Shown here piece after piece: positions 8,101-63,500 of a stretch of DNA of 64,000 nucleotides. Numbering within the stretch: the first letter of the stretch is position 1; each line of letters begins with the position of its first letter. This stretch comes from Centroscyllium fabricii. Lineage: Eukaryota. Position numbers and translations under genes: made by a program. The stretch spans positions 69,502,001 to 69,566,000 of the forward strand of contig JBNRSN020000020.1 of the NCBI GenBank assembly GCA_051313645.2, written 5' to 3'. The notes beneath the pieces were generated by a model. That model saw only the letters and a program-made list of their open reading frames with translations. It was not told where the DNA came from and did no database searches.

Positions 8101-9828
8101 GGCGACCTTAAGGGTCGAGAGGCCACAGGTAGCGCGCCGGGGCTGCTGCACCGAGCGCCGGTTGCTGACCGTGAGCGAGGGAAGGGGCCCACCATATGCC
8201 ATGGTAATGCTTTGGAGATGGCACTGGAAGTCCAGACCCAATAATAATGGAGCGCAGAGCTGCGGCAGCACGTAAAAGCTAAAGTTACTAAAGTGCACGC
8301 CCTGCACCGTTAGAGCCACTGCGCAACGCCCAGAGACGTCCGCAGATTCCGATTTGGAAGCCATTGAAATCTTTTGGCTCGCTGGCATAACCTTAAGGGA
8401 GAGGCGCTTTACTGTCTCAGGATGAACAAAACTCACCGTGCTCCCACTGTCGAAAAGGCACACCACGTCCTGTCTGTTCACTCCCACCGGCATCATCGAT
8501 TTCCCGAGTGATTGGGTCTTGTTCTGGTCCAGAGTCACCGATGCCAATATTGGATCAGACGATTCCTCTTGATCCGGCGAGAAGTCCTCTGGGGCCGGTT
8601 CCCAAGATGGCTGCCGCAATGCGGTGTACTGCAGAGGGGGTGGCTGGGTCCAATATGGCGACTGCTGCCACGCGGGGTGCTGAGTGGGGGATGGCTGAGT
8701 CCAATATGGCTGCCCCCATGTTCCACACGCGGCACTGTCCGGTTTCGGTTTAGGGGCTGTGATCGCCTTACAGACTTTAGCGTAATGTCCCTTCTTTCCA
8801 CATTTTGAGCAGGCCGCTTCTCTTGCCAGGCAGCTGCGTCTCGGATGCTGAGACTGCCCGCAGAAGTAACATTTTGCCGTCTTAGCATGAGCGGCTGCGA
8901 TCATTTCTTCTGCCGGCCGTTGTGCCGGCGCTGCCCAAGATGGCGGGGCTGGGCCCGTATAGTTGCCGGAGTATGATGATAGGTTTAGTGAGGCCACGTC
9001 CAGTGCATTGCCCAGCGCATTGCCCAGATCCGCTGTTGCCTGCAGGTCAAGGCCGTTCTGTTCTAACAGCCTCTGTCTGATATAGTCCAACCTGAGGCCT
9101 GTAACATATGCGTCTCTGATTAGACTGTCCACATGGATCTGGGCCAATTGTGCTCTGCAGTCACAGGCCCGTGATAGCACTCTCAGCGCTCTTAAAAATT
9201 CCACGCTGGACTCACCGGGTTGCTGCATCCTGGTGGCTAGGATGTGTCTGGCGTGGACGATATTGGGTGCCCGGTTGTACTCTGCCTTGAGGATCCTGAT
9301 AGCATCCAAGAATGATGATGCGTCCACGATCATGGAGTACACCTGAGGGCCCACCCGGGCGTTGAGGAGCCGCCGTTTGTCCTCTTCGGTCCTGACGACC
9401 GCTGCGTTCGTTCTCAGGTACGCATCGAAACAGTCATACCAGTGCGAGAATGTGTTTGATGCGCCTGGTGTCCGGGGATCCAATTCAAACGTTGCTGGCT
9501 TGAGCATTCCGTCCATCTTCAAAATTTAGCGAATAAAATTGTGACCGAAATAACGACCTCGTGGACGAGTAGTTAGAAGGGTGAAACAATAAGGCTTTTA
9601 TTCGCTAAATGGTGGACATGCACCAGCTAGTCGACCGTCCCCAGGAATGGCTGGGGGATGGGAGACGGCCGCTTATATACCTCCTCCTGGGAGGGAGGAG
9701 TCGCGGGCGGAGCCAGCGTGGGCATGTCCAGGTAATCGCACAATAGGTTATGTACAACATGAATAAAGGTACGATTACAGAGATACATAACGGGGTGGGT
9801 ATATACAAGGAAACAGTGGTTTACCACA
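5184..9828 (-). mobile_element. Full-length Ty3/Gypsy LTR retrotransposon, family A copy 1 (Mag-like gag)
   Basis: 289-bp LTRs 5184-5472 and 9540-9828 (TG..CA, about 5 mismatches), 5-bp TSD AACCT, PPT AAGAAGGGGTGAA at 5473-5485. Confidence 0.97.
5529..9516 (-). pseudogene. gag-PR-RT-RNaseH-IN polyprotein of A1, one frameshift near 7275
   Basis: Zn knuckles CYFCGQSQH..C..CSKCGKKGHYAKVC, protease LFDSGS, RT IDLKSAYHQ..PFG..YLDN, RNaseH ESDASD, integrase H..H..C..C, VDFKGP, HSDRG, GQVERE. Confidence 0.93.
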
Positions 9829-10588
9829 AACCTATCAGTCAATTTTATTACAGTAGAAAATCTGTTCTGCACAGAGAGAGAAGGGGTGGTTATTTTTTCC
9901 ATCTGTATTTGCATACAAATCATTTTTTATTTTTTTCTCTGTATATGTTTAAAAGTGAAGCAAGGAAGAATGCTTTTCCAGAAACATAATAACCTTAGAT
10001 GATCCCTTACACTATTTTGCTTCTTAAAGATTGTACATTTTTAACTTTAATGCACATTTAACTATCAGATTTACATCCTGCCAACATTGTGTTCACCTGA
10101 CACTTCATACGTTAATACCTTACAGATGTGACCAGGCTGTATACACTTGGGTGTTATTGTGTGAAAGGAAGTCAGAAGAATGAGTTGTTGGGTGGGCGTA
10201 CTGGGTAGGCTGTTCCCTTATAGTTTTAACAGTGAATGATGGCATCGTCGGTGGAATTGGCTAGGATGAGTTACTAAATTAACACCAGTAGGTACAGCCA
10301 TTAACTCAGCATGCTTCAGCTGGTGTGTCATTTCAACTGTGCAGATTAATTCAGCTTCCTCACAGTAGTCAACATGGTAAGAGCTCCAAGACAGTTCCCT
10401 GTTGATGATTTGGCTCTTGTCATCTACCCAATTATTTTTTTAATAATAAAAACAGTATAAGAATAAAAGGATGTTGTCTAAATGGTTTACAAATGATTGC
10501 AGTTTTTAAATAATGCATTGCTGGAGAGATTCTCTCTTTTTAAGGGGTATATTTTCTGATTTGTGAAGTTTATTTATCGATGCTTGTA

Positions 10589-12128: not shown

Positions 12129-15100
12129 TGTGGTAAACCACTCTTCTATGTATTATAAGTATATCCATTCACTCTGTCTTGTATATATATATTGTTGTTG
12201 TAATCGTACTATTCACCATGTTGTATCATAGTTCATTGTATACGATTACCTGGACATGCCCATGCTGGCTCCACCTGCGACTCCTCCCTCCCGGGGCCAG
12301 GTACATAAGCGGCCGTCTCCCATCCCCCTGCCATTACTGGGGACGGTCGACTAGCTGGTGCATGTCCACCTTTAGTGAATAAAAGCCGAATTGTTTTACC
12401 CTCTTAACTACTCGTCCACGAGGTCGTTATTTCGGTCACAATTTTATTCACTAAATTTGACGATGGACGCAATGCTCAAACCAGCAAAGTTCGAGCTGGA
12501 CCCCCGGACACCAGGTGCATCAAATACCTTTTCACACTGGTTCGACTGTTTCGATGCGTTCATGAAGGCGAACGCAGCGGTCGTCAGGACCGAAGAAGAC
12601 AAACAGCGGCTCCTCAACGCCCGGGTGGGCCCTCAGGTATACTTCATGATCGTAGATGCATCATCGTACTCGGATGCAATCGGGATCCTCAAGGCGGAGT
12701 ACAACCGGGCACCCAACATCGTCTACGCCAGACACCTCCTGGCTACCAGAAAACAGCAACCCGGTGAGTCCAGCGTGGAATTCCTACGCGCGCTGAGACT
12801 AATTTCCCGGGCCTGTGACTGTAAACAGCAATTGGCCAAGGTCCACGCGGACAATCTAATCAGGGACGCGTATGTGACGGGCCTCAGGTCGGACTAAATT
12901 AGACAAAGGCTGTTAGCGCAGAACGGCCTTGACCTGCAGGCAACAGCGGACCTGGGCAACGCGCTGGATGCGGCATCACTGAATTTATCGTCATATTCTG
13001 GAAACTCCATGGGCCCAGCCCCGACAAATTGGACACCGCCGGTGCCACGGCCGGCGGAAGAAATGACTGCGGCCGCTCGCTCTAAGACGGCCAAATGCTA
13101 CTTCTGCGGGCAGTCTCAGCATCCGAGACGGAGCTGCCCGGCGAGAGACGCGACCTGCTCGGAATGTGATAAAGGGGGACACTGTGCCAAAGTCTGCAGA
13201 GCAACTGCAGCACCGCAACCGAAACCGGGCAGCGCCGTGTGTGGGACATGGGGGCAGCCATCTTGGACACTGCCATCCTCAACACAGCCCACCGCGTGGC
13301 AGCAGACGCCATCTTGGTCTCAGCCACCCCCTCCGCAGTACACCACATGGCAGCAGCCATCTTGGGACCAGGCCCCAGACGACTACTCTACGGATCAAGA
13401 CGACTCGACCGATCCGGTACTAGCTTCAGTCACCCTGGACTAAAACAAGACACAACCACTTGGGAAGTCGATGATGATGGTGGAAGTGAACGGGCAAGAC
13501 GTTGAGTGCCTCTTCGACAGCGGGAGCACGGTGAGTTTTGTCCACCCTGCAACAGTAAGGCGCCTCTCCCTTAAGGTTATGCCAGCGAGCCAAAAGATAT
13601 CCATGGCATCAAAATCAGAATCCGCGGACGTCTCCGGACGTTGCGCAGTGGCTCTAACGGTACGGGGCGTGTACTTTAATAATTTTAAATTTTTCATGCT
13701 GCCGCAGCTCTGCGCTCCATTGTTATTGAGCCTGGACTTCCAGTGCCATCTCCAAAGCGTTACCATGGCGTACGGTGGGCCTCTTCCCCCACTCACGGTC
13801 TGCAACCGGCGCTCGGCGCAGCATCTGCAGCGCACTACCTGTGGCCTCTCGACCCTTAAGGTCGCCCCTCCCTCGCTATTTGCTAACCTCACCCCAGACT
13901 GCAAGCCCGTCGCCACCAAAAGTAGGCGCTACAGTACCGGGGACATGGACTTCATCAAGTCCGAGGTGAAGCGCCTCCTGAGGGAGGGGGTTATCGAGGC
14001 CAGTAACAGCCCCTGGAGGGCGCAGGTAGTGGTGGTGAAGACCGGAGCTAAGAACCGGATGGTAGTGGACTATAGCCAGACCATTAACCGGTTCATCCAG
14101 TTGGACGCGTACCCCCTTCCCCGGATAACGGACATGGTAAATCAGATCGCGCAGTTTCGGGTCTTCTCGACCATCGATCTGAAGTTCGCGTATCACCAAC
14201 TCCCCATTCGCCCAGAGGACCGTCTCTATACGGCCTTCGAGGCTGACGGCCGCCTCTATCACTTCCTCAGGGTTCCATTTGGCATCACGAATGGGGTCTC
14301 GGTCTTCCAAAGGGAGATGGACCGAATGCTCGATCAGTACGGGCTATGAGCCACTTTCCCGTATCTCGATAATGTGACCATCTGCGGCCACGATCAGCAG
14401 GACCATGACGCCAACCTCCAGAAATTTCTCCACACCGCCAAAACACTCAACCTGACCTATAACACAGAAAAATGTGTGTTCAGGACCACCCGCCTCGCCA
14501 TCCTCGGCAGTGTCGTGGAGAATGGGGTCATCGGTCCCGACCCGGACCGCATGCGCCCCCTCATGGAGCTCCCCCTCCCCCACTCCCTCAAGGCCCTCAA
14601 AAGGTGCCTGGGATTCTTCGCCTATTATGCCCAGTGGGTCCCCAACTATGCGGACAAAGCTTGCCCACTACTCAAATCAACCTCATTCCCCCTGTCAGCA
14701 GATGCCCGCGCGGCGTTCTGCGGCATTAAGAATGACATTGCAAAGGCAACGATGCACGCTGTGGATGAGTCCGTCCCGTTCCAGGTTGAGAGCGATTCAT
14801 CGGACTTTGCCCTGGCCGCCACCCTTAACCAGGCGGGCAGACCCGTGGCCTTCTTCTCACGTACCCTCCAGGGCCCCGAGACCCGTCACTCCTCAGTCGA
14901 GAAGGAGGCCCAGGCCATTGTTGAAGCAGTGCGTCACTGGAAGCACTACCTGGCCGGCAAACGATTTACCCTGCTGACTGACCAACGCTCAGTCGCTTTT
15001 ATGTTCAACAACAAAGAGCGGGGCAAAATCAAGAACGACAAGATATTAAGGTTCAGAATTGAGCTCTCCACGTTCAATTATGATATCTTGTACCGGCCCG

Positions 15101-16787
15101 GGAAACTCAACGAACCCCCAGACGCCCTATCCTGTGGTACATGTGCCAGCGCACAAGTAGACCATCTCCAAACCCTGCACAACGACCTCTGCCACCTGGG
15201 GGTCACCAGGTTGGTTCACTTTGTGAAGTCCCGCAACCTCCCCTACTCCATCGAGGAGGTCAAGACCATGACCAGCAACTGCCAGGTCTGTGCGGAGTGC
15301 AAGCCGCACTTCTTTCGGCCAGACCGGGCGCATCTGATCAAGGCCACCCGCCCCTTTGAATGACTCAGCGTCGATTTTAAAGGGCCCCTTCCCTTGGCCA
15401 ATATGAACGTGTACTTCCTTAATGTCATTGACGAGTACTCCCGTTTCCCCTTTGCCATCCCCTGCCCAGACATGACCTCTGCCACTGTCATCAAGGCCCT
15501 TCACAGTATTTTCTCCCTGTTCGGCTACCCCAGCTACATCCATAGCGACCGGGGGGCCTCTTTCATGAGTGACGAGCTGCGTCAGTTCCTGCTAGCCAAA
15601 GGCATCGCTGCTAGCAGGACTACCAGCTATAACCCCCAGGGGAACAGACAGGTAGAGAGGGAGAATGCCACGGTCTGGAAGGCCATCCTGTTAGCCCTAC
15701 GGTCTAAAGGCCTCCCAGTTTCCCGCTGGCAGGACGTCCTCCCCGAAGCGCTCCACTCCATCCGGTCACTCCTTTGTATGGCCAATAATGCCACCCCTCA
15801 CGAGCGACTTTTTGCTTTCCCCAGGAAGTCGGCTTCCGGGACCTCGCTGCCATCGTGGCTATCATCCCCGGGACCGGTCCTACTCCGGAAGCACGTGAGG
15901 GGCCACAAGGCAGACCCCCTGATCGAACGGGTCCACCTCCTGCACGCCAATCCCCAGTACGCCTACGTGGCGTACCCCGACGGTAGGGAGGACACCGTGT
16001 CCATCAAGGACCTGGCACCAGCGGGGGCCCCCAAAACCCCCCCACCCAGCAGCCCATGCCCCCGCACCCGCCAGCCACCCCACCCGGGCCACCGGTACCA
16101 AGGTACGCTCCCCGGCACGAGAATCAGGCACCACGGTACGTCCGCCTGGCATCTGTAGGCAGCACGGCATGGCCTCTGGCATGGCTCCATAGTGCACGCC
16201 CCCTAGAGTCAGACGATGACGGGGAGAGCGCGCCGCCAACTGTCACCGCAAGGGCACTGACGAGGGACCAACCGACTCAATCAGCTATCGTACGCCCACC
16301 GATATCATCACCAGCGGTGCGATCAACACAACCGGCTACTTCACGTCCGCCAACACCACCAGCGGTGCGCCGTTCCACCAGGCTTACCAGGCCGCCTGAG
16401 AGACTAAATCTATAAATTGAAAGAACAGTCGCACTCACCCCGCCGGACTTTCGTTTTAAAGAAGGGGTGAATGTGGTAAACCACGCTTCTATGTATTATA
16501 AATATATCCATTCACTCTGTCTTGTATATATATATATATTGTTGTTGTAATCGTACTATTCACCATGTTGTATCATAGTTCATTGTATACGATTACCTGG
16601 ACATGCCCATGCTGGCTCCACCTGCGACTCCTCCCTCCCGGGGCCAGGTACATAAGCGGCCATCTCCCATCCCCCTGCCATTACTGGGGACGGTCGACTA
16701 GCTAGTGCATGTCCACCTTTAGTGAATAAAAGCCGAATTGTTTTACCCTCTTAACTACTCGTCCACGAGGTCGTTATTTCGGTCACA
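12129..16787 (+). mobile_element. Full-length Ty3/Gypsy element, family A copy 2 (defective)
   Basis: LTRs 12129-12440 and 16472-16787, TSD GTGAC, PPT AAAGAAGGGGTGAA; gag ATG 12463, polyprotein broken by stops at about 12897, 13443, 14349 and 15363 and a frameshift near 16040. Confidence 0.97.
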
Positions 16788-16893
16788 GTGACTACACAAA
16801 CCACTCTGGGTACAGGTATATTGTACATAAGTAAAACAGGTTTATTAAGCATTAAATATCCAGTACAAAGAATTAATACTTGACAAGTAGATA

Positions 16894-19641: not shown

Positions 19642-20218
19642 TATTATAGTTAGATAAAAATGGTTATAGAATCTTAACAATGTTTGCTAAATCCTACAGG
19701 TACACTCTATCCAGGTTCCCAAGTGAATACTTGGGTGAGTTATCAGAGGGTGATTAATGTTGTGTTTCCGATTCCTTGAGGTGTGTGTGAGGCAAATAAG
19801 ACACAGGCACAGTGCTTAAATAACAAAGGTCTTTACTTGATCGATATCCAGGTGGAAGCCCACTGATACATTTAGTGCAGCGCCTTTTATACACAGTGGC
19901 CTAAAGCTGCACTACAGTAACCTTCCCATATACAATATAGTTCCTTTACAGTTGCTATGCCATTGGCTCACAGGCTGATACAGCGGCTTTGCCATTGGCT
20001 CACAGACTGTCCATCATAGCCTATTCACATACACCACATCCCTCCCCTCTTACATGAGCACATCACCCCTCTTCTTTTTTTTCTTTTTTTTTAAACATCT
20101 TTAACAACAGTAAAATGAACATAATAACAATTTTACTTCTTACAACATGATTTCTAGTGACTCCTTACTTTAACATTTATCACAACATTATTTAGAGTCA
20201 ATGAATTTACTTTAACAT

Positions 20219-21046
20219 TCATCCCAAGCCCTGATATTTGCCATAAGGGTCCTCCTCTGTCGTTGGAAACGTGTTCATGTATAGTCCTTGAACGGGTTTG
20301 CCCGTGATTGGGTTAATCTTGGTGTCAGGATTAGTTGTCGTTGTCGTTGTCCGGCTCCTGGTGCTTTTGCAGGCTTTAGCCAGATGTCCTATCTTTCCAC
20401 ATCTTCGACACATCTTGTCGCGGGCCCAACAAACAGCTTGGTCATGGTTGTTACCCGCACAACAGAAACAGTGTTTAACATCCTGCAACATCTGGTTCGA
20501 TTGGTATTCGTGTTCCCGTGGTTTCTGTTTAATTTCTGCTGCACTTCTAACAGCTGACTCGTAGGACACCGCTATGTTGAAAGCTGCACCCAAGGTTAAT
20601 TCTTTCTTCGTCAAGAGAAGCTTTTGTGTGCATTCGCTAAGCAATCCACAAACAAACCTGTCTCTTAATAATTCTGTGCGCATCTCGCCATATTGGCAGC
20701 GATCTGCCAGTTTTCTTAGTTCCGCTATATATTCAGCATTTGACTCCCCGGTCTGCTGATCCCTGCGGTGAAATTTAAATCTTTCCGCTATTATCAATGG
20801 AGTAGGGTTGAGATGGTCTTTCATTAATTCGACTATTTGCGTATAGGTTTTGTCCATGGGTTTTTCTGGGGTTGCTAAACTTTTCAATAGTCCGTATGTT
20901 TTTGCACCCATCAAATTTAAAAGAGTAATCACTTTCCGGTCTTCTGCTATATTATTAGCTGCACAATAAATCTCAACCCTTTCAATATAAATGTCCCAGT
21001 TCTCGATGTCATTATCGAACGCTGCTACAGTAGGGACCTTTGTCAT
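20219..21046 (-). CDS. Intact Mag-type Gag (about 275 aa) with two Cys/His knuckles
   Basis: FDNDIENWDIYIERVEIYCAANNI..LLNLMG, IIAERFKFHRRDQQTGES, LRDRFVCGL, CFCCAGNNH..CRRCGKIGHLAKAC. Confidence 0.85.
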   Translation of the reverse strand: MTKVPTVAAFDNDIENWDIYIERVEIYCAANNIAEDRKVITLLNLMGAKTYGLLKSLATPEKPMDKTYTQIVELMKDHLNPTPLIIAERFKFHRRDQQTGESNAEYIAELRKLADRCQYGEMRTELLRDRFVCGLLSECTQKLLLTKKELTLGAAFNIAVSYESAVRSAAEIKQKPREHEYQSNQMLQDVKHCFCCAGNNHDQAVCWARDKMCRRCGKIGHLAKACKSTRSRTTTTTTNPDTKINPITGKPVQGLYMNTFPTTEEDPYGKYQGLG

Positions 21047-21720
21047 CCTCAATTATACTTATTTTCTTTTTCAATTTTTTTTTCAACTATTCAAAATGGC
21101 GCACGCCACGACGGTATTCTCGCGTTCTTTGTCGTTTTCAAAATGGCGTTTGCCACGACGGTGCTCTTCGCGCCCTTTTCTGTTTTTACAGTGGCGTTTG
21201 TGCAGGGAAAGCAAAGAAACGGCACCTTCCCGGTCCTTTCTTGCTTCCTCCCCGCTATGCCTGGTTCCTCCCGCGATCCCCGCGGTCTACTCGGTGGAGT
21301 GGCACTCCGTTTTCCGTGGTAGTGGTCTACCCCACCCCAGATACAGAGCCCGCCCTTTTAATACCACCGGGGGCTTCCCGAATAACCCGGATTAATTACC
21401 GTGGTTTCGGTCTCCTCGACTCCTGGTCGGCGATTGCCTCTGTCGTTCCCGATCCCCGGGTGCTGGAGAGTCAACACTGAACTCTCTACAGCTTCTCGAT
21501 GTTCTGTCGTTCCTGCCTTAGGGCTGCCTCTTTGATGGTCACCCCGTTCCTAGGCTTGTCTGTGCACTGTGTTGGGCTGCTGCTTTGGTGATCGCCCAGC
21601 CTCTGGTTCTGCCTCCAGGCCTTGTCCACGCAGTAGTTTTGTGGGCTGCTCCTTCGTTGGATGCCCCAGCCTCAGACTTTCACTGATGACTTACTGCAGG
21701 ATTCCTAGAGTTACCCGCTA

Positions 21721-21731
21721 TCTCGTCGCCA
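21721..21731 (-). promoter_or_regulatory. tRNA primer-binding site (tRNA-Ser GCU-like)
   Basis: TGGCGACGAG starts 1 nt after the 5' LTR; complementary to the ...CTCGTCGCCA 3' end of vertebrate tRNA-Ser(GCU) as I recall it. Confidence 0.7.
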
Positions 21732-22053
21732 CTGTTGTGTTTCCGATTCCTTGAGGTGTGTGTGAGGCAAATAAGACACAGGCACAGAGCTTAAATAACA
21801 AAGGTCTTTACTTGATCGATATCCAGGTGGAAGCCCACTGATACATTTAGTGCAGCGCCTTTTATACACAGTGGCCTAAAGCTGCACTACAGTAACCTTC
21901 CCATATAGAATATAGTTCCTTTACAGCTGCTATGCCATTGGCTCACAGGCTGATAGAGCGGCTTTGCCATTGGCTCACAGACTGTCCATCATAGCCTACT
22001 CACATACACCACAATTAACACCCATGGACTTGTCGGTCATTGCCTTCAGGAAT

Positions 22054-31660: not shown

Positions 31661-34600
31661 TGATACCATCAATTACTCGAGTCTGAGAGCGAGTTAACAT
31701 AGGCTTTAATAAACTTAGAACAAGCGTAAGGGATCACAGGTATCGTTAGTACAGTACAGTAGAGAGGAGGTCAGAACCCACGAGTGCTGACCTTTATACC
31801 CCCAGGGTCAGAGGCGTGGCCTACCCGAGGTCCTCCAGGTACAGGTCTCCCAAGTCTGGCTGGGCAAGAGTAGACACGCCCTAAGGCATGTACATACACA
31901 TAGTTGGTGTTATAGCCAATATCACCACATTCACCCCCTGTTAAAGAATTTCAGTACCAGGGGGGGCACAAACAATACCTAACATATGTACAGACAGTAT
32001 TTACAAAGGTTCCGAGATGTTCCAAAAAAATTGTGGCCGCCTGTTCATGCCAGGTCACATTGTGCAGACCAGGCGGTCTGGCTGGCGTCGCACCCTCGAC
32101 GACCGTCTGAGCTGCTGGTCCTGCCGTTCGGTATCGGTACCTGGGGAAGCCGAAGGAATATACGTTAGCAGCGCATCACCAGGGAATACGGCGGTATGGG
32201 TCGGTGGGGGGCTGGGCACGGGCTGCGATGTGGTAGGTGCCGGCTGGGCCCACGACGAGAGGAAGGGGGGTGGGGGCGGAGTTGTGGTCGCAGGGGCGCC
32301 TGCGGGCGCCAGGTCTTTAATAGAGACTGTGTCCTTCCTGCCATCAGGGAACTCCACATAGGCGTACTGCGGGTTAGCATGGAGGAGGAGTACCCTGTCG
32401 ACCAGTGGGTCGGTCTTATAATGCCGTACATGGCGCCGCAACAGTACTGGGCCCGGGGAGGCTAGCCACGACGGCAGCGACATCCCCGAGATGGACTTCC
32501 TGGGGAAGGAAAACATCCGTTCGTGCGGCGTTGCGTTGGTCGCTGTACAAAGAAGCGACCGTACGGCGTGTAGAGCGTCCGAGAGAACCGCCTGCCAGCG
32601 TGAGGCTGGAAGGCCCCTGGACCTGAGTGCCAGGCGGACCGCCTTCCAGACAGTGCCATTCTCGCGCTCTACTTGGCCATTGCCCCGGGGGTTGTAGCTC
32701 GTTGTCCTGCTCGACGAGATTCCTCTCGCGAGTAGGAACTGGCGCAGTTCGTCGCTCATAAAAGCAGACCCCCGGTCAGAGTGTATGAATGAGGGGAAGC
32801 CGAATATTGCGAATATCGGGGCGAGGGCGTTGATGACTGTGGCAGCAGTCATATCAGTGCAGGGTATCGCAAATGGGAAACGGGAGTATTCGTCCACGAC
32901 TGTGAGGAAGTAGACATTCCTGTCGGTGGACGGGAGTGGGCCCTTAAAATCGATACTAAGGCGTTCGAAGGGCCGAGAGGACTTAATCAGGTGTGCCTTG
33001 TCCGGTCGGAAAAACTGCGGCTTGCATTCCGCACAGACCGGACAATCCCTGACTATCTCCCTAACCTCCGCAATACTATACGGTAGATTGCGGGCTTTGA
33101 TAAAATGATAGAAGCGGGTGACCCCCGGGTGGCAGAGGTTATTATGCAGAGCCTGTAGTCTGCCCGCCTGCACGCTGGCGCAGGTCCCACGGGGCAGTGC
33201 ATCGGACGGCTCGTTGAGTCTACCTGGCCTGTACAAAATATCATAATTAAAGGTGGACAATTCGATCCTCCACCTCAAGATCTTATCGTTCTTAATTTTT
33301 CCCCGCTGTGTGTTACTAAACATAAATGCTACCGACCTCTGATCGGTGAGCAGGGTAAATTTTCTACCGGCCAGGTAGTGTCTCCAGTGGCGCACCGCTT
33401 CGATAATGGCTTGGGCCTCTTTTTCCACGGAGGAATGCCGTGCTTCCGAGCCCGAGAGGGTACGGGAAAAGAAGGCAACGGGTCTGCCTGCTTGGTTCAG
33501 GGTCGCCGCCAGGGCGAAGTCGGACGCGTCGCTCTCCACTTGGAAAGGCACGTCCTCATCAATGGCGGACATTGCAGCTTTTACTATATCGGCTTTAAGT
33601 TGCTTAAAAGCCGTTAGTGCCGCTGCCGACAGGGGAAAAACAGTGGCCCGCATCAGAGGCCGGGCTTTGTCCGCAAATTTCGGGACCCACTGCGCGTAAT
33701 ACGCGAACAGCCCCATGCACCGCTTTAGAGCTTTGGGTGTCTTGGGAAGGGGATACTCAATCAGCGGGCGCATTCGGTCAGGGTCCGGGCCGATTAGCCC
33801 GTTTTCCACCACACAGCCCAAAATAGCCAGGCGTCTGGTGCGGAAAACACATTTTTCTTTGTTGTAGGTCAAATTCAGGGATTTGGCTGTTTTCAAAAAT
33901 TTAGCGAGGTTCTCGTCGTGGTCCTCGTCCGAGTGGCCGCAGATAGTGACGTTATCTAGATAGGGAAAAGTGGCCCTGAGCCCGTGTTCGTCTACCATTC
34001 TATCCATTTCCCTCTGGAAGACGGACACTCCGTTCGTCACTCCGAAGGGAACCCGAAGGAACTGGTAGAGGCGACCATCCGCTTCGAAAGCGGTGTAGGG
34101 GCGCTCCTCTCTGAGGATTGGGACCTGGTGATATGCCGCTTTAAGGTCTATAGTCGAATAGACTTTGTATTGGGCAATTTCATTTACCATGTCCGAGATC
34201 CGGGGAAGGGGGTACGCATCGAGGAGTGTAAACCGGTTTATGGTCTGACTGTAGTCGACCACCATCCTGTTCTTCTCCCCCGTCTTTACCACTACTACTT
34301 GGGCCCTCCAGGGGCTGCGGCTGGCTTCAATCACCCCCTCTGCCAACAGTCGCTTCACCTCGGTGCCAATAAACGCCCGGTCTGCAGCACTATACCGCCT
34401 GCTCTTTGAGGCAATCGGTGCGCAGTCCGGCGTGAGGTTCGCGAACAGTTTCGGGGGTGAGATCCGTAAAGTGGTGAGCCCACAAAGCGGGCGCTCACGG
34501 GGGGTACTCGACTCGACCGTCAGGGGTGGGAGAGGGCCGCCGTATGCCAAAGTGACACTCTGCAGGTGGCTCTGGAAATCGAGCCCCAATAACATTGGCG

Positions 34601-36173
34601 CGCACAAGTGGGGTAACACAAACAGTTTAAAATTACAGTATTTTACCCCGCGAACTACAAGTGATACTACGCAACACCCCACGGCCTGCGCCGATTCTGA
34701 GTCCGCCGCCAAGGCAATGCGTTTTAAACAGGGGCGGATCGACAGGTGAAGACGGTCAACAGTCTCGGGGGAAATAAAACTATCAGTACTACCCGTATCA
34801 AATAAACAGTTACAGTTTTGTCCGTTTACCTGGACGTCCATCATTGATTTCTGCAGTTCATGGGGTTTTGATTGGTCCAAAGTGATGGACGCCAGCACGG
34901 TTGATGAGTCGTCTTCATCCGAATATTCGGGGTCGGAGTCAAGTCGAAGACTCTCAAAATGGCCGCTGCCTCGTGGTGATGAACTAAAATGGCCGCTCCT
35001 CCTAGCTGTGGCCTCAAGATGGCCGCCGCCTCGTGGTGCTCCCTCGCGGTCATCTACCTCCGTGTAGTAGGAACGTGGTGCCGCTCTCGCTCCGCTGCAG
35101 ATGGGGGCTGCCTTCTTTTTCTGCCCTGTTGCGCGGCACATCGCGGCATAGTGCCCCTTCTTTCCACACCCCGAGCACGTAGCATCTTTGGCTGGGCAGC
35201 GCAGTCTAGAGTGCCTAGCTTTTCCGCAAAAGAAACACTTTTGGTTGGTTTCAGGCCTGCTTCTTCCTGCCGCTGCCGTTAGCGCTGGGGTAGGAGTTGG
35301 GGCTGGGGATGCCCACGTAGGCGCGCTTGGTTGGCCATACGTGGTGGATCTCCGATCTGCATTGTCCAGATTTACAATCAGGGAGGCTGCTTCTTTTAAC
35401 GTTAGCTCATCCCGTTCTAGCAGTCGGGCCCTGATATATGGGGAGTATACCCCTCTTACCAGAGCGTCCAGTGCCAGTTCGTTGTAGTGTTCGTCCGCCG
35501 TCAGGGGGCCAGGGGCGCAATCTCGGGTCAGCGCACAAATTTCTTTCACGAATTTGGCGCCCGGTTCCTCGGCGCTCTGGGCTCTCTGAGTCAACACGTG
35601 CCTTGAGTGAACAGCGTTGGCTGCTGGCACAAATTGTTCTTTCAGTTTCTTCATGGCCTGTTCGTAATCCGACTCCCCTTCGATGAGGTGGTAATGGTCA
35701 GCACTGATTCTGCAGTGTAGAATTCGGCTCTTCTGCTGATCAGTTGAAGCAGTCTCTTTCACTTCGTCGATATAGCTCCTCAGCTGCTGTTCCCAGTGTT
35801 TATACCGGCGTTCGGCATCGGGAGCAGTCGCATCAATTTCCAAGATCGGGACAGCCAGAATTCGGTCCATTTTGGATTTTAGCGACGATCTAAGTTTATT
35901 AAATTGATACCATCAATTACTCGAGTCTGAGAGCGAGTTAACATAGGCTTTAATAAACTTAGAACAAGCGTAAGGGATCACAGGTATCGTTAGTACAGTA
36001 CAGTAGAGAGGAGGTCAGAACCCACGAGTGCTGACCTTTATACCCCCAGGGTCAGAGGCGTGGCCTACCCGAGGTCCTCCAGGTACAGGTCTCCCAAGTC
36101 TGGCTGGGCAAGAGTAGACACGCCCTAAGGCATGTACATACACATAGTTGGTGTTATAGCCAATATCACCACA
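31661..36173 (-). mobile_element. Ty3/Gypsy element family C, apparently intact, nested in the 5' end of B gag
   Basis: 269-bp LTRs 31661-31929 and 35905-36173 (no difference seen), TSD ACTTG, PPT AACAGGGGGTGAA. Confidence 0.97.
32055..35870 (-). CDS. Single-ORF Gag-PR-RT-RNaseH-IN polyprotein (1271 aa)
   Basis: Uninterrupted ORF: CFFCGKARH..CSGCGKKGHYAAMC, LFDTGS, YLDN, ESDASD, HNNLCHPG..CPVC, IDFKGP, HSDRG, GQVERE. Confidence 0.95.
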   Translation of the reverse strand: MDRILAVPILEIDATAPDAERRYKHWEQQLRSYIDEVKETASTDQQKSRILHCRISADHYHLIEGESDYEQAMKKLKEQFVPAANAVHSRHVLTQRAQSAEEPGAKFVKEICALTRDCAPGPLTADEHYNELALDALVRGVYSPYIRARLLERDELTLKEAASLIVNLDNADRRSTTYGQPSAPTWASPAPTPTPALTAAAGRSRPETNQKCFFCGKARHSRLRCPAKDATCSGCGKKGHYAAMCRATGQKKKAAPICSGARAAPRSYYTEVDDREGAPRGGGHLEATARRSGHFSSSPRGSGHFESLRLDSDPEYSDEDDSSTVLASITLDQSKPHELQKSMMDVQVNGQNCNCLFDTGSTDSFISPETVDRLHLSIRPCLKRIALAADSESAQAVGCCVVSLVVRGVKYCNFKLFVLPHLCAPMLLGLDFQSHLQSVTLAYGGPLPPLTVESSTPRERPLCGLTTLRISPPKLFANLTPDCAPIASKSRRYSAADRAFIGTEVKRLLAEGVIEASRSPWRAQVVVVKTGEKNRMVVDYSQTINRFTLLDAYPLPRISDMVNEIAQYKVYSTIDLKAAYHQVPILREERPYTAFEADGRLYQFLRVPFGVTNGVSVFQREMDRMVDEHGLRATFPYLDNVTICGHSDEDHDENLAKFLKTAKSLNLTYNKEKCVFRTRRLAILGCVVENGLIGPDPDRMRPLIEYPLPKTPKALKRCMGLFAYYAQWVPKFADKARPLMRATVFPLSAAALTAFKQLKADIVKAAMSAIDEDVPFQVESDASDFALAATLNQAGRPVAFFSRTLSGSEARHSSVEKEAQAIIEAVRHWRHYLAGRKFTLLTDQRSVAFMFSNTQRGKIKNDKILRWRIELSTFNYDILYRPGRLNEPSDALPRGTCASVQAGRLQALHNNLCHPGVTRFYHFIKARNLPYSIAEVREIVRDCPVCAECKPQFFRPDKAHLIKSSRPFERLSIDFKGPLPSTDRNVYFLTVVDEYSRFPFAIPCTDMTAATVINALAPIFAIFGFPSFIHSDRGSAFMSDELRQFLLARGISSSRTTSYNPRGNGQVERENGTVWKAVRLALRSRGLPASRWQAVLSDALHAVRSLLCTATNATPHERMFSFPRKSISGMSLPSWLASPGPVLLRRHVRHYKTDPLVDRVLLLHANPQYAYVEFPDGRKDTVSIKDLAPAGAPATTTPPPPPFLSSWAQPAPTTSQPVPSPPPTHTAVFPGDALLTYIPSASPGTDTERQDQQLRRSSRVRRQPDRLVCTM

Positions 36174-37126
36174 ACTTGCTGCTCTCCATTTTAAATTTAT
36201 CAATTAAAATTGTAGCGTAGTCGCTAACTCAATTAAAAGGCGACTCATAAGTACCGAAAATACAAGGCTTTTAATTGATAAAGAATGTAGCTAGTCTCCT
36301 TACAAGTTCACATACAAGAATGAAGGGGCTGGGTCTGGCCACACCTTATATCGGTGTCCCCACCTGGGGAGGAGTCGAGGGTGTGGCTGACCTGGCTCCC
36401 AGCAGTACAATGGCACTTATACAATGGTAGCCATATAAGGCAATGGTAACCATATAAGGGTTACCACATTCTGAACAGAGAGAGAGAGGGATGGTTAAGG
36501 GTACAAGGGATGTAAGGGTAAAGTGAGATATGCAGGAGTAGGTTGACCATGCAGAGTGCTGATGATGGGAGGTGATGGGGAGCAGATTGAGGGTAAGTGT
36601 GATGTTATACTCACTTTTCCTGAGCGTACCAGGTCATTTACCTTTTTCTTGCAGTAGACCTAAGAGCGAGAACACAGCGATCTGGAGCTGACCTCCTCAG
36701 CATTTTGCAGCCAGGCTGCTTTGCTTTGCTGAGGAGGCTTCCTCCATCCAGAGGATGAGAATAGTACCTCCCTGCGCCCTCGCACTCCATCCACAAGAGC
36801 ATGGAGGGAGTCATCATCAAAGCGGGGAGAGGCCTTGGCTCTTGGAGCAGTCATGGGAGCAGTTGCCAGTATGAAAACCAACATAAAAGGATGAAAATGA
36901 AAGAAGGCTGCATGGGCCCCTTAAATGCAGTTGGCTGACAGAATCCAGCAGAGGCGAACAGCAGACCCGAAATCACTAATTGGGCCTGGTAGTGCGCACG
37001 CAGGGATTCAATAGGGCAATTAAGGTGAAATTTCAATTTCTGACCGGCTGAAAGCCGAGGCAGGACCGGAACCCACCGACCACCAGACCCACACCCATCC
37101 CGCCACAACTGATAAAATCGCGCCCA

Positions 37127-46028: not shown

Positions 46029-46065
46029 TCGCAAGCTTTCGGAGCGCTGCTCCTTCATCAGGTGA
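46029..46065 (-). ncRNA. Minimal hammerhead ribozyme motif in Penelope pLTR
   Basis: TCAC-CTGATGA-A-GGAGC agc GCTCC-GAAA-GCTT-GCGA. Confidence 0.65.
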
Positions 46066-46188
46066 AAGAGAAGTTCATTTAATGACAGCAAATATACAAG
46101 GGAGAGAGCAGTCTAATCTCTCCAACATCACACCTCAGCAGAGAGACATACAGAGCAGTCAAAAGGTGTTTTAACATATTTTAACATA

Positions 46189-49100
46189 TGTGGTAACCAT
46201 AATTGTCTATAGTTTACCACTACAATATTGGTGCCAATATTGCCATGTATATAGTTAAACATGTTGCGACACTGTCGTGGAGCCAGGTCAGCCACACCTC
46301 TAACTCCTCCCCCAGGTGAGGCCCTTTATAGGTGAGGACTGACCGGGCTCACTCATTCTGTTCCTGTTTGTTCGTTCGGAGTGTAGCTCCAAAGTAAGTC
46401 AATAAAAGCCTGTAGTTAAGGTCACTACTCGTCTTTGACTTTATTGAGTAAATTGACGATACGTCAATTTTATTGACTTATAAATTTGAAATGGAGAGCG
46501 GTGCGGTAAAACCAGAGAAGCTGGACATCAGTCCACAGGACCCAGCCGCCGCCACTATCTACGAACACTGGTTCGGTCTCCTGGAGGCCTACATGGACGC
46601 CGCCAAGGCTACAACCAACGGGAACAAGCTACAGGTTCTCCGGTCTAGGATCTCCAGCCGAGTATTCTCCCTCATTCGGGATGCCAAAACCTACCCAGTG
46701 GCAGTGGAGAAACTGCGAAAATGTTACGAGCGCCCGGTCCACTCAGTCTACGCCAGACATGTGCTCGCAACCAGACCACAACTACCGGGTGAGTCGAATG
46801 AACAATTCGAGCAGGCACTCCAGGCCCTAGTACGGGTCTGTGGCTGCCAACCACGGACAGCAGAGGAGGAGGCGAATCTCCTCGTCCGTGATGCCTACGT
46901 AACAGGCCTAAGGTGCGTTGAGGCCCGCCAGCGGCTGCTAGAGAAAGACTCTTTAACCCTAGAGGAGGCGATCGCCATCTCAAACTCGGTGGAAGGGGCA
47001 CGCAACAAGCTGCAGGCGTACAGCGGCACAAACCCGCAGGTCTACGACGCGTGGGCCGCGCCACAACGGGCCCAGGCCTGGGCAGCACCACAACGGGCCG
47101 AGACCCCCACGATGGCAGCGACAGCTGCAAAAACGCAGGCGGACAGACGGTGCTACTTCTGCGGCCAGGGACTGCATCCACGGGCGAGATGCCCAGCGAA
47201 GACCGCGACCTGCGAGAGGTGCTCCAAGAAGGGACACTATGCAAAGGCCTGCAGATCAGCCCCGGCGCCCAACTCCAGGTACAACAGCGCAGCCTGCGAA
47301 AGCTCCGCCAGGACTCAGGTAAGCTGCAATTGCAGCGCGATCCAGCGACGGTCCAGGGGTAGAAGAAAAGCGCCCCCATCTCCCACCCTGATGCGGCAAA
47401 GGCCGGCTGCACCCACGGCACGCCAAGCGCGACCCCCCAACGCCAGCAGCACACACAGCGCGGCCCGCTGCGTGCGAATCACGGGCACCGCCAACCCAAC
47501 CACCGCGGCTCGCTGCGTGCGAACCACGGGCACCGCCAACCCAGCCACCGCGGCCCACTGCGTGCGAACCACGGGCGCCGCCAGCGCGCTCACAGCGGTC
47601 AGCCGCGTGCGAACCATGGGCGCCGCCATCTTGTCTCCAACGGCCCGCCATGTGCGACCCCTCGGCGCCGCCATCTTGTCTCCAGCGGCCCGCCATGTGC
47701 GATCCCTCGGCGCCGCCATCTTGTCTACAGCCCCAACCAGCAGGGGGCCCCCACACACAAACGCACACTCCGGCCTCAGCCATACCAAAAGTCGACCAGG
47801 CTAGGCCGCACACCCTATCGAACTTGATCATGCCGATCAAAATTAACGGCCATACTACTAATTGCCTGTTCGACACTGGAAGCACAGAGAGCTTCATCCA
47901 CCCCGATACAGCGCAGCGCTACAGACTGCAGATCCTGCCCACACGCTACCAAGTCTCCCTTGCTTCACAGTCCCACACCGCGGACGTCACCGGCTACTGC
48001 TCCATCACGCTCACAGTCAAGGGTTGTGTGTACCGTAACTTTAAGTTGTACACCCTCAAGCAGTTGTGCGCCCCAGCCTTACTAGGTCTGGATTTCCAGT
48101 GCCACCTCAAGAGCGTGACAATGGAGTTCGGCGGGACCCTGCCCCCCTCACCGTCAGTAGCCGGGACAGTCCCTTCCCAAAGCGGAGCCCGGCCTGTGGC
48201 TTCTCCACCCTGAAAATCGACCCCCCCTCACTGTTCGCCAATCTCGACCCCAACTGCAAGCCTATTGCTACTAAGAGTCGGCGGTATAGTGTGGGGGATC
48301 GGACATTTATCAGGTCGGAGGTCGGGCGTATGCTGAAGGAGGGGATAATTGAAGCCAGCACCAGCCCCTGGCGGGCCCAGGTTGTAGTGGTAAAGACTAG
48401 CGAGAAACAGCGGCTGGTTATCGATTACAGCCAGACGATTAACCGCTACACCGGGCTCGACGCCTACCCCCTCCCCCGCATCTCGGACATGGTCAGCCAG
48501 ATCGCCCAATATAAGGTGTTCTCCACGATCGACCTTAAGTCGGCGTATCACCAACTCCCGATCCGGAAAGCCGACCGCCAGTACACCGCCTTCGAGGCGA
48601 ACGGTCGGCTCTACCACTTCTTCCGGGTCCCCTTCGGCATGACCAATGGAGTGTCAGTGTTCCAACGGGAGATGGACCGCATGGTTGACCAGAACGGGTT
48701 GCGGGCCACCTTCCCTTACCTGGACAACGTGACTATCTGCGGCCATGACCAGCAGGACCACGATGCCAATCTGGCCAAATTCCTTGACACGGCGGAACGG
48801 CTGGACCTTACGTATAACAAGGACAAATGTGTCTTTAATACAGATCGGCTCGCCATCCTCGGATACGTGGTGGAGAATGGGGTCCTTGGCCCCGACCCAC
48901 AGCGTATGCGCCCCTTACAGGAACTGCCCCTTCCTCACAACCCCAAAGCCTTGAGGAGATGCCTAGGATTTTTCTCCTACTATGCACAATGGGTCCCACA
49001 GTTCGCGGACAAGGCTAGACCACTCCTCAAGGCTGCCGTCTTCCCCCTCTCGGTAGAAGCCCAAACGGCATTCGCCCGGATAAAGGAAGACATCATCAAT

Positions 49101-51878: not shown

Positions 51879-51915
51879 TCACCTGAAGAAGGAGCAGCGC
51901 TCCGAAAGCTTGTGA
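51879..51915 (+). ncRNA. Minimal hammerhead ribozyme motif in Penelope pLTR
   Basis: TCAC-CTGAAGA-A-GGAGC agc GCTCC-GAAA-GCTT-GTGA; stem I TCAC/GTGA. Confidence 0.68.
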
Positions 51916-54840: not shown

Positions 54841-54926
54841 GTAAGTTCATAGAATTGTGGCTTCTGAGTGCTGGTACATACAACCAGCGCATAAGAAAGT
54901 GAATAACTGGTCACGATTAGTCCAAT

Positions 54927-60131: not shown

Positions 60132-60573
60132 AGTAATGAGATCATTTCTGTAGCTAACAGAGCTTAGAGTTGGAATGCATTTTCCACTACTTCACTGAGA
60201 ATGTTGTTACTTTTAAACAAATATTCATAGTTACCGCTGACTTGGTGTATGTATATATGTATGTAAATCAAGTAAAGTATGAGCAATATGGCAACATTAT
60301 CTTGAGATGTATTTAAAATAATGTTTCAATAAAAAGCAAGTGTCCCATTAACCACAATTGCATTTGAATTTTGCATAATTGTGGACCCTTCATAAAAGAT
60401 GAACATAATTTTAAACAACAGGGTTATTATTACAGATCTGTTTGTTGCATGCAATCAGAGAAATCAGATTGTTGAAGAAGAGCTTACACATGCTCAGATG
60501 GTGCAGTATTAAAACTCTAAGTTGAACGTGGAGTCACACTTTTGTATTAAAGCTGTTAATATTTTGAGCTGCT

Positions 60574-63500
60574 TGTGGTAAACCACTCTTTCATGTATAT
60601 ATATCCACTCTTTTATGTATATATATGTATCGTTGTAATCGTACTATTCACCATGTTGTATTATAGTTCACTGTGTACGATTACCTGGACATGCCCATGC
60701 TGGCCCCGCCTGTGACTCCTCCCTCCCGGGACCAGGTACATAAGCGGCCGTCTGCCTTCCCCCTGCCATTCCTGGGGATGGTCGACTAGCTGGTGCATGT
60801 CCACCTTTAGTGAATAAAAGCCTAATTGTTTCATCCTCTTAACTACTCGTCCACGAGGTCGTTATTTCGGTCACAATTTTATTCACTAAATTTGACGATG
60901 GAAGCAATGCTCAAGCCAGCAACGTTCGAGCTGGACCCCCGGACACCAGGCGCATCAAATACCTTCTCGCACTGGTTTGACTGCTTTGATGCGTTCATCA
61001 AGGCGAACGCAGCGGTCGTCAGGACCGAAGAAGACAAACGGCGTCTCCTTAATGCCCGGGTGGGCCCTTAGGTATACTCCATGATCGTTGACGCATCATC
61101 GTACTTGGATGCAATCCGGATCCTCAAAGCGGAGTACAACCGGGCACCCAACATCGTCCACGCCAGACACCTCTTGGCTACCAGAAAACAGCAACCCGGT
61201 GAGTCCAGCGTGGAATTCCTACGCGCGCTGAGACTACTCTCCCGGGCCTGTGACTGCAAACAGCAATCGTCCCAGGTCCACGCGGACAACCTGATCAGGG
61301 ACGCGTATGTGACGGGCCTCAGGTCGGACTATATTAGACAAAGGCTGTTAGAGCAGAACGGCCTTGACCTGCAGGCAACAGCGGACCTGGGCAACGCGCT
61401 GGATGTGGCATCGTTGAATTTATCATCATACTCTGGAAACTACGCGGGCCCAGCCCCGACAAATTGGACATCGCCGGCGCCGCGGCCGGCGGAAGAAATG
61501 ACTGCGGCCGCTCGCTCTAAGACGGCCAAATGGTACTTCTGCGGGCAGTCTCAGCATCCGAGACAGAGCTGCCCGGCAAGAGACGCGGCCTGCTCGAAAT
61601 GTGGCAAAAAGGGACACTATGCCAAAGTCTGCAGAGCAACTGCAGCGCCGCAACTGAAACCGGGCAGTGCCGCGTGTGAGACGTGGGGGCAGCCATCTTG
61701 GACAAAGCCATCTTCAACATGGCCCACCGCGTGGCAGCAGACGCCATCTTGGTCTCAGCCACCCCCTCCGCAGTACACCACATGGCGGCAGCCATCTTGG
61801 GACCAGGCCCCAGACGACTTCTCTACGGATCAAGACGACTCGACCGATCCGATATTAGCTTCAGTCACCTTGGACCAGAACAAGGCTCAACCACTCGGAA
61901 AGTCAATGATGACGGTGGAAGTGAACGGACAAGACGTCGAGTGCCTCTTCGACAGCGGGAGCACGGTGAGTTTTGTCCACCCAGAAACAGTAAGGCGCCT
62001 CTCCCTTAAGGTTATGCCGGTGAGCCAAAAGATCTCCATGGCATCAAAGTCAGAATCCGCGGACGTCTCCGGACGTTGCGCGGTGGCTCTAACAGTACGG
62101 GGCGTGCACTTTAATAATTTTAAATTTTTTGTGCTGCCGCAGCTCTGCCCTCCATTATTATTGGGCCTAGACTTCCAGTGCCACCTCCAAAGCATTACCA
62201 TGGCGTACGGTGGGCCCCTTCCCCCGCTCACGGTCTGCAACCGGCGCTCCTCACAGCACCCGCAGCGCGCTACCTGTGGCCTCTCGACCCTTAAGGTCGC
62301 CCCTCCCTCGCTCTTTGCTAACCTCACCCCGGACTGCAAGCCCGTCGCCACCAAAAGTAGGCGCTACAGTGCCGGGGACATGGACTTCATTAAGTCCGAG
62401 GTGAAGCGCTTCCTGAGGGAGGGGGTCATCGAGGCCAGTAACAGCCCCTGGAGGGCGCAGGTAGTGGTGGTGAAGACCGGAGCTAAGAACCGGATGGTAG
62501 TGGACTATAGCCAGACCATTAACTGGTTCACCCAGTTAGACACGTACCCCCTCCCCCGGATAGCGGACATGGTAAATCAGATCGCGCAGTTTCGGGTCTT
62601 CTCAACTATAGATCTGAAGTCCGCGTATCACCAGCTCCCCATCCGCCCAGAGGACCATCTCTATACTGCCTTCGAGGCTGACGGTCGCCTCTATCACTTC
62701 CTCAGGGTTCCGTTTGGCGTCACGAATGGGGTCTCGGTCTTCCAAAGGGAGATGGACCGAATGGTCGATCAGTACGGGCTGCGAGCCACTTTCCCGTATC
62801 TCAATAACGTGACCTTCTGTGGCCACGACCAGCAGAACCATGACGCCAACCTCCAGAAATTTCTCCACACCGCCAAAACACTCAACCTGACCTATAACAC
62901 AGAAAAATGTGTGTTCAGGACCACCCGCCTCGCCATCCTCGGCAGTGTTGTGGAGAATGGGGTCATCGGTCCCGACCCGGACCGCATGCGCCCCTTCCTG
63001 GAGCTCCCCTTCCCCCACTCCCTCAAGGCCCTCAAAAGGTGCCTGGGGTTCTTCGCCTATTATGCCAAGTGGGTCCCCAACTATGCGGACAAAGCTCGCC
63101 CACTACTTAAATCAACCTCATTCCCCCTGTCAGCAGATGCCCGCGCGGCGTTCTGCGGCATTAAGGACGACATTGCGAAGGCAACGATGCACGCTGTGGA
63201 CGAGCCCGTCCCGTTCCAGGTCGAGAGCGATGCATCGGACTTTGCCCTGGCCGCCACCCTTAACCAGGCGGGCAGACACGTGGCCTTCTTCTCACGTACC
63301 CTCCAGGGCCCCGAAACCCGTCACTCTTCCATTGAGAAGGAGGCCCAGGCCATTGTTGAAGCAGTGCGTCACTGGAAGCACTACCTGGCTGGCAAACGAT
63401 TTACCCTGCTGACTGACCAACGCTCAGTCGCTTTTATGTTCAACAACAAAGAGCGGGGTAAAATCAAGAACGACAAGATATTAAGGTGGAGAATTGAGCT

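Follow-up and report, generated by a model that had tools for sequence, protein, structure and literature searches.

To our knowledge, self-priming of reverse transcription has been shown experimentally only for the Tf1-type elements of fission yeast, whose primer is 11 nt long. Tf1 and Tf2 of Schizosaccharomyces pombe, Tj1 and the Tf1/sushi group have no tRNA primer binding site (PBS); as set out in the relevant sections of PMC7175516, PMC4600332, PMC5341516 and bioRxiv 2022.12.06.519325, their PBS complements their own R region and the 5' end of the transcript serves as primer. In Tf1, whose mechanism is treated in parts of PMC7175516, the first 11 nt pair and the RNA is cut between nucleotides 11 and 12. 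Self-priming has also been predicted for Tcn1 chromoviruses and the plant TAR copia elements (Houba, Osr-1) from at least 10 bp of complementarity between the post-LTR sequence and the 5' LTR, and the sections of that account on priming (PMC6317226) give neither primer length, nor a link to the poly(A) signal, nor read-through evidence. Copying of the retroviral PBS is covered in part of PMC7472051.

Here we analysed a window of 64,000 nt of Centroscyllium fabricii DNA, which holds six elements (A1, A2, A3, B, C and D) of a single non-chromoviral Gypsy lineage. As in Tf1/sushi elements, the PBS is complementary to the element's own 5' LTR and a tRNA-type TGG is absent. In contrast to Tf1, the pairing lies about 40 nt past a +1 deduced from the DNA, and the predicted primer is about 52-54 nt long, with the poly(A) signal at its end, as opposed to an 11-mer. 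The Tf1/sushi group is chromoviral, whereas the window elements are without a chromodomain; Tcn1 and TAR elements likewise belong to other lineages. Unlike in retroviral tRNA priming, the primer here would be encoded by the element. Our search of the literature found no account of this pairing in non-chromoviral animal Gypsy elements; the original Cigr-1 and Jule descriptions, GyDB and Repbase lay beyond its scope and could remove the novelty.

The PBS of six window elements is complementary to their own LTR

The window elements show the features of the Ty3/gypsy superfamily, including the order PR-RT-RH-IN, TG...CA LTRs, a polypurine tract and a short target-site duplication (TSD), and the best PDB match is Ty3. 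A1, A2, B, C and D each have an LTR pair, a 5-bp TSD and a polypurine tract; for A3, the 3' LTR was not found within the window, where the internal match stops near 63577. Element C sits a few codons into the gag of B, with a 5-bp TSD.

In all six elements the PBS begins with TTT(T)A, lacks the tRNA-type TGG and varies with the element's own LTR. The initial annotation had described the six PBS/LTR pairs as exact reverse complements, and this was reproduced in every case (6/6). Its further statement that the LTR partner is always followed by GCC is true of the window (6/6) and fails outside it, where one of four families has TGG and locus L367 has GTC in its 5' LTR and GCC in its 3' LTR. The A that separates LTR and PBS lies outside the integrated LTR, and the A following the 3' LTR in A1 and D belongs to the TSD. 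An internal control is provided by element E, which reads CA + G + TGG and shares the register of the six elements (CA, one nucleotide, PBS); its longest LTR complement is at most 5 nt. An Rfam search of the window returned no match.

Table 1. Features of the elements in the window. Positions are those of the whole window; fold-backs are the read-through insertions described below.
Element	Feature	Position	Strand	Details
A1	5' LTR	9540..9828	-	3' LTR 5184-5472; 5 differences in 289; 5-bp TSD
A1	Predicted primer, from initiator A (9648) through AATAAAA	9596..9648	-	+1 placed from family-A fold-backs
A1	Pairing segment	9596-9610	-	TATA 9674-9679
A1	PBS, 15 nt	9524..9538	-	Spacer A at 9539; gag ATG 24 nt past LTR
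A2	5' LTR	12129..12440	+	3' LTR 16472-16787
A2	Predicted primer, 52 nt	12333..12384	+	Pairing segment 12371-12384
A2	PBS, 14 nt	12442..12455	+	
A3	5' LTR	60574..60875	+	
A3	Predicted primer, 52 nt	60768..60819	+	Pairing segment 60806-60819
A3	PBS, 14 nt	60877..60890	+	
B	5' LTR	36211..36468	-	3' LTR 27101-27358; 1 difference in 258
B	Predicted primer, 53 nt	36269..36321	-	Pairing segment 36269-36282, ATTAAA-type signal
B	PBS, 14 nt	36196..36209	-	
C	5' LTR	35905..36173	-	3' LTR 31661-31929, identical
C	Pairing segment, 15 nt	35949..35963	-	TATA 36037-36042; CATT-type initiator absent; +1 perhaps about 64 nt upstream, judging from TATA spacing
C	PBS, 15 nt	35889..35903	-	
C	gag-pol frame	32055..35870	-	Two CCHC-type knuckles, protease, RT (YLDN motif), RNase H, integrase; no chromodomain hit
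D	5' LTR	46189..46466	+	3' LTR 50842-51119; 1 difference in 278
D	Predicted primer, 53 nt	46355..46407	+	Pairing segment 46395-46407; basis includes fold-backs; small hairpin around TAGCT at 46384
D	PBS, 13 nt	46468..46480	+	gag ATG 25 nt past LTR
E	Internal control, TGG-type PBS	19758..22013	-	Same register as A-D; no LTR complement

PBS and LTR covary across the genome and are complementary in distant relatives

The motif has 236,884 matches in the genome, compared with two for a reversed control. Discordant A/T combinations at the swapped position (587 + 495) amount to 0.46%, which bears out the claim that pairing is kept despite sequence change, including the exchange of AATAAA for ATTAAA. 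The search pattern behind the genome samples holds pairs 1-7 fixed and leaves positions 8-13 free of selection, so that these samples cover lineage members already paired at 1-7. Among 59 copies, a set that leaves out the fold-back L110, positions 8 to 13 are paired in 52, 58, 55, 58, 58 and 57 copies, respectively, and position 14 in 28; positions 8-13 are all paired in 47 of the 59, against 3.7 +/- 1.8 in 2000 shuffles. The same copies carry 26 distinct 13-mers, none starting with TGG, and families are therefore far more numerous than the four first counted. Using a gag tree of 64 copies, we found 48 changes in the LTR and 55 in the PBS at positions 6 and 8-13, with a joint count of 58, corresponding to about 45 shared changes. 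Co-mutation within single copies is rare, which speaks against the reading proposed below, and offered a weak test: among 21 D-type copies with a position-11 change in the LTR, one has the matching change in the PBS and one is altered in both LTRs with the PBS unaltered, while the others look post-insertion.

The pairing is also present in other hosts. From 11 outside loci picked by protein alone, five (L362, L363, L366, L368 and L369) are without a 5' junction, and all six readable loci, from four families, show the pairing at protein identities of about 40-57%. Complementarity is kept in a larger copy set and in other taxa. At the protein level, relatives occur in rays, sharks, a sea cucumber and a spider; a search of viral contigs gave no genuine relative, and a protein atlas gave RT clusters only, without names. 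Our tree has one long-stemmed clade (SH-aLRT 100, 31/43 rows), and no chromodomain Pfam hit was found in the integrase-bearing frames of the window or in the precomputed domains of 15 close relatives. The gag of the window elements has two CCHC-type knuckles, which we take to be a Mag-like feature, and the single frame, short LTRs and length of about 4.3-5 kb presumably amount to a resemblance to Ciona Cigr-1. The Mag lineage and the Cigr-1 clade are both reported from molluscs in the relevant part of PMC6238403. Literature searched on Cigr-1 yielded neither a sequence nor a PBS description.

Predicted leader folding and start site

Counted from the pairing partner's 3' end, the TATA box lies at about -80 to -85 and the initiator A in most cases between -51 and -54; fold-backs that end at the initiator A do so 52-54 nt from the same point. 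The central PBS duplex is predicted with a probability above 0.8 in 54 of 65 leaders, and GCC, whose partners differ, has a pairing probability above 0.5 in 45 of 69. Compared with the three-duplex "pretzel" of the Tf1 leader, no single conserved counterpart was found among the predicted folds. Folding estimates give the poly(A) hexamer an unpaired probability of 0.08 with the PBS versus 0.59 without it, and on these estimates the 5' poly(A) signal is probably masked by that same duplex. Poly(A)-tailed genomic copies, sought to map the cleavage site, gave no matches, and three contig-only runs, aligned to D for RNA evidence, revealed no starts or ends.

Read-through insertions record the end of the copied template

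Some aberrant insertions run past the PBS as an inverted R region. These fold-backs have at least 651 genome matches, and a control has none. We read 51 of 100 listed places as loci: U3 is traversed in 26; among the others, 8 have their end at +1, 2 a single base past it, 2 at 4-6 bases past it and 13 before it, and within view none stops further into U3. Genome-wide, 274 fold-backs reach the initiator A, with 92 ending exactly there and 182 carrying the next donor base; 23 of the first 100 of these 182 also depart from the donor within 6 nt. Family A repeats the pattern (first 100 of 531 fold-backs), with 25 stopping at +1, 17 a single base past it, 4 within 5 nt and 54 running on. Family C has five fold-backs, all long, and the end of L210, of the same family as B, falls no more than one base from +1. 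At the main acceptor, 50 of 58 cases show the donor T as junction base and 8 the acceptor C (1 of 59 rows concerns another site), and normal gag has C at this position in 41 of 42. The 92 stops show about 22 junction types, and they are not all independent events, because about 50 of them share one acceptor with microhomology.

Given the +1 stops, their repetition in family A and the donor-specific junction base, the genomic sequence indicates that plus-strand DNA copied an RNA spanning the cap site to AAUAAAA. The +1 stops show that the template RNA ended there, not that it was covalently attached, and a plus-strand end could anneal to the R region in a co-packaged RNA. A C at the junction, considered as templated by the cap, is a hint at most, as the traced acceptors mostly carry C too (8 motifs). 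About half of the fold-backs, those through U3, call for either a DNA template or priming by a 3' end. A palindromic insertion in the window (18396-18768) was also left by an unrelated LTR family. Long fold-backs are hence not specific, and we dropped them as proof of priming; DNA fold-back accounts for them.

A proposed capped self-primer and its alternatives

The reading that we consider likely, drawn from sequence comparison, is that a capped self-primer of 52-54 nt is made from the front end of the element's own RNA. Transcription would start about 30 nt past the TATA box, at the A within a [T/C]CATTC initiator, a position suggested by spacing and fold-back ends. The RNA from about +40 to +53, ending in A(A/U)UAAA(A), is predicted to pair with the 13-14-nt PBS one base past the LTR, and a cut between the A-run and GCC would yield the primer. 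By analogy with Tf1, we put it at roughly even that the cutter is the element's own RNase H, a domain that is present. Plus-strand strong-stop DNA would copy the attached primer, so that in every cycle the element's own R serves to rewrite the PBS, which would account for the near-perfect covariation. Insertion would normally keep only 13-14 nt; in a fraction of a percent of events, seen as genomic sequence, copying goes further, often to the cap, and the product is fixed in the genome. Covariation, distant relatives and fold-backs that end at the initiator A all favor the initial annotation's proposal of self-priming by an R segment away from the cap end.

The same primer sequence could have another origin if priming occurred in trans, with the genome RNA uncut and short capped transcripts that terminate at the poly(A) signal of a 5' or solo LTR annealing to the PBS and being trimmed to the duplex edge. 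This would account for a primer that ends at the poly(A) signal and predicts the same stop at +1. We nevertheless regard it as unlikely: the copied arms show 9 differences in 766 nt from the LTR of their own element, mostly a lower number than against other copies that share the 13-mer, favoring cis or same-locus copying, and folding predicts the cis duplex in 54 of 65 leaders. We are still more doubtful that priming normally uses the 3' copy of R, with the 3' end of the RNA, cut after AAUAAAA, pairing with the PBS. Copying through U3, seen in 26 of 51 fold-backs, would then be permitted, but no stop at +1 is predicted, yet a third of those reaching it (92/274) stop there. Furthermore, five fold-backs (L110, L191, L202, L208 and L209) end exactly at the first base of the LTR, with a 5-bp duplication, as a strong-stop DNA template predicts.

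The duplex could also be regulatory only, kept by selection for 5' poly(A) masking, translation or packaging, while a tRNA fragment or other host RNA serves as primer. The HIV-1 poly(A) hairpin is a precedent for such a duplex, although the predicted masking partner here is the PBS itself, and sequestration of the hexamer in our folding is in line with this idea. It is very improbable, however, in that 26 different 13-mers would require equally many host primers, the pairing begins exactly in the PBS register and is broken after 13-14 nt, and the few G-U pairs (7 of 354 cells, positions 8-13) are scattered and not family-wide. Plus-strand read-through also yields the element's own R, not host RNA, and those insertions that end at the cap speak against this reading as well. 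We give least credence to the absence of any function, where an inverted repeat is homogenised at the DNA level through hairpin template switching. Fold-back products do exist, and in L138 one change is common to the 5' LTR and PBS and missing from the 3' LTR, but such correction is rare (1/21), the pairing persists in relatives whose proteins are about 40-57% identical, nothing would make a DNA template end at the initiator, and the elements would be left without a primer site.

Implications for Gypsy element biology

With the capped self-primer as the preferred reading, we lean, by somewhat more than an even chance, towards a broader view: an old and widespread lineage of non-chromoviral animal Gypsy elements would self-prime independently of Tf1, using a capped 52-54-nt leader that ends in the poly(A) signal. 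One helix would both disable the 5' signal and start reverse transcription, the PBS would be rewritten each cycle, and hundreds of read-throughs would record the 5' end of the primer, possibly including the cap, at single-base resolution. Self-priming seemingly occurs in this lineage, separate from that of Tf1, whose junctions number at least 237,000 in a single genome of 7.2 Gb. If true, this would be a second self-priming design, in which a long capped primer is coupled to the poly(A) signal, and it would be independent of host tRNA and hence probably beyond the reach of silencing by tRNA fragments. LTR finders that demand a tRNA PBS would be expected to miss or mislabel this lineage. Read-through insertions make primer identity and start site legible from genome sequence alone, an approach applicable to other elements without a tRNA PBS.

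The primer binding site mirrors a segment of the element's own LTR

All six Gypsy elements under study in the window (A1, A2, A3, B, C and D) carry, one base past the 5' LTR, a primer binding site (PBS), the exact reverse complement of an R-region segment ending in A(A/T)TAAA(A) and followed by GCC, as the initial annotation had described. For five of them (A1, A2, B, C and D) the LTRs are paired, of the TG...CA form and 258-316 bp long, with polypurine tracts and 5-bp duplications present; the 3' LTR of A3 was not found within the window. LTR pairs of equal length differ at 0-5 positions, so the copies are young. C is located inside the start of B's gag. The domain order is protease, RT, RNase H and integrase, the best relative of solved structure is Ty3, and a domain search of the window elements returned no chromodomain. 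The neighbouring control LTR element, E, shares the register of CA plus one nucleotide and has no LTR complement longer than 5 nt. Its PBS is of the TGG type, which we take to be tRNA-Ser(GCU)-like.

Features accompanying the self-complementary elements (window coordinates)
Feature	Coordinates	Strand	Description
Palindromic insertion	18396-18768		TG...CA ends; unrelated LTR-like family; TATA, AATAAA and 5-bp duplication
Element E	19758-22013	-	LTR element of 2.3 kb whose sole frame is gag
Tandem repeats of B and D	30194-30773, 47413-47727		45-bp units in the gag-protease spacer
Coding frame of C	32055-35870	-	RT active-site motif YLDN
Repeat at D's insertion site	45970-46189, 51112-51974		Long internal inverted repeat
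Small hairpin around conserved TAGCT, with alternative pairing over the gag start codon	46376-46392, 46491-46497		Directly before the pairing segment; also in loci L031-L059

Across the 7.2-Gb Centroscyllium fabricii genome, a scan for the junction pattern gave 236,884 matches, and controls gave 2. When the A/T position of the AATAAA/ATTAAA swap was left open in LTR and PBS alike, 587 + 495 matches were discordant (0.46%); despite this low discordance, the ATTAAA type accounts for about a third of sampled copies (19/59). This sample consists of the first 60 of 100 places among the matches listed, with one locus, L110, set aside. Its selection pattern fixes pairs 1-7 by design; positions 8-13 are paired in 52-58 of the 59 copies and position 14 in 28/59. 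Pairing is perfect in 47/59 copies, versus 3.7 in shuffles (maximum 10, 2000 shuffles). On a gag tree, accounting for the seven variable positions takes 48 changes in the LTR, 55 in the PBS and 58 jointly; this tree has 64 rows, several of them long-branched, leaves out L110 and L125, and includes a row, wB, that is actually C's LTR. Co-mutation of LTR and PBS at the level of single copies was seen in 1/21 cases. One locus, L138, has a private change common to its 5' LTR and PBS and absent from its 3' LTR; in another, L180, both LTRs are changed and the PBS is not, possibly an intermediate.

Eleven loci picked by protein alone provided an unbiased check. The 5' junction is visible in six, all of which show the pairing, over 13-14 nt in five and 10 nt in L361. 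One of the four outside families has TGG instead of GCC. These loci (L359-L369) are contigs within bacterial MAGs that bear these eukaryotic retrotransposons, most likely host contamination.

Lineage and predicted leader folding

Among named proteins, the nearest are those of rays and a shark, followed by those of a sea cucumber and a spider. In a quick tree without named reference elements, the window elements, their named relatives and the bacterial-MAG contigs fall in one long-stemmed clade (31/43 rows, SH-aLRT 100). This clade may belong to Mag or to Cigr-1. Most members, including young, abundant families, have an RT active-site motif of YLDN or Y[IV]DN, in which asparagine replaces the second aspartate; YxDD is retained on some branches.

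Folding predictions give the LTR/PBS duplex a probability above 0.8 in 54/65 leaders, and the unpaired probability of the hexamer falls from 0.59 to 0.08 once the PBS is included. In 45/69, a stem is predicted to begin at GCC, and since its partners differ among leaders, a conserved pretzel fold is not established. In some folds, the 3' arm of the TAGCT hairpin pairs alternatively over the gag start codon; this hairpin might halt plus-strand copying or act as a translational switch.

Some read-through insertions end at the putative initiator

A TATA box lies ~80-85 nt before the 3' end of the pairing segment, and the A of a [T/C]CATT initiator, our putative +1, mostly 51-54 nt before it. This spacing places the pairing segment ~40 nt into the RNA. 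Some insertions continue beyond the PBS as an inverted copy of the R region. In L110, LTR and PBS are followed by an inverted copy, perfect over 242 nt, that reaches the first LTR base, with a 5-bp duplication. Such fold-backs have 651 matches genome-wide (control, 0). Among 51 examined as loci, 26 continue through U3 and 25 stop: eight at the initiator A, two one base later, two four to six bases later and 13 earlier, with no stop further into U3 within view. After the stop, most fold-backs continue in gag, pol, leader or LTR sequence of their own (23/25 mapped); L200 rejoins the normal leader. Between copied arms and the LTR of the same copy, 9 of 766 nt differ (24 loci), which favors a source in cis or at the same locus. 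In L194, L213 and L215, a second snap-back or jump within the R region has produced iterated inverted repeats.

Genome-wide, 92 fold-backs stop at the initiator A and in 182 the next donor base is present; a trailing filter costs both patterns about a quarter of their matches. Among the 92, one reflects a point change within a long arm; among the first 100 of the 182, 23 likewise depart from donor sequence within 6 nt. The stops sort into about 22 junction types, among which a single hot spot in gag predominates. There, the last base is the donor T in 50 and the acceptor C in 8, and normal gag has C in 41/42, indicating that copying ended at +1 and the product then annealed with a terminal mismatch. 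Homology-driven switching would not favor such an outcome. In family A, among the first 100 of 531 fold-backs, classed by eye, 25 end at +1, 17 end one base past it, 4 end within five bases and 54 run on. The next base is C in 14 of those 17, a theme shared by L210 and L212; it may be cap-templated, from transcripts starting one base earlier. The five family C fold-backs are all long. Long products fit a DNA fold-back, and the palindromic insertion in the window, left by an unrelated LTR family, shows that insertions of this kind also occur outside this lineage. No poly(A)-tailed copies were found.

Comparison with Tf1 and a proposed priming mechanism

Self-priming as such is already known. 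According to PMC7175516, Tf1 pairs through its first 11 bases and is cut by RNase H between bases 11 and 12; bioRxiv 2022.12.06.519325 places this pairing in a fold of three duplexes, in elements that bear a chromodomain. In contrast, the elements described here lack a chromodomain and would pair well inside the RNA rather than at its first bases. The literature searched, which does not extend to the early papers on Cigr-1, Jule and sushi or to GyDB/Repbase notes, yielded no description of a long primer that ends in the poly(A) signal, nor one of the PBS of this lineage.

The register, covariation and conservation of the pairing, and read-through ending at the initiator, are evident in the genomic copies themselves. 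At the level of sequence, the stops at +1 establish that the template was an RNA with its end there, without implying covalent attachment. In the mechanism we propose, the transcript start would be capped, the RNA would be cut after the A-run, with RNase H as the candidate cutter, and the duplex would mask the poly(A) signal.
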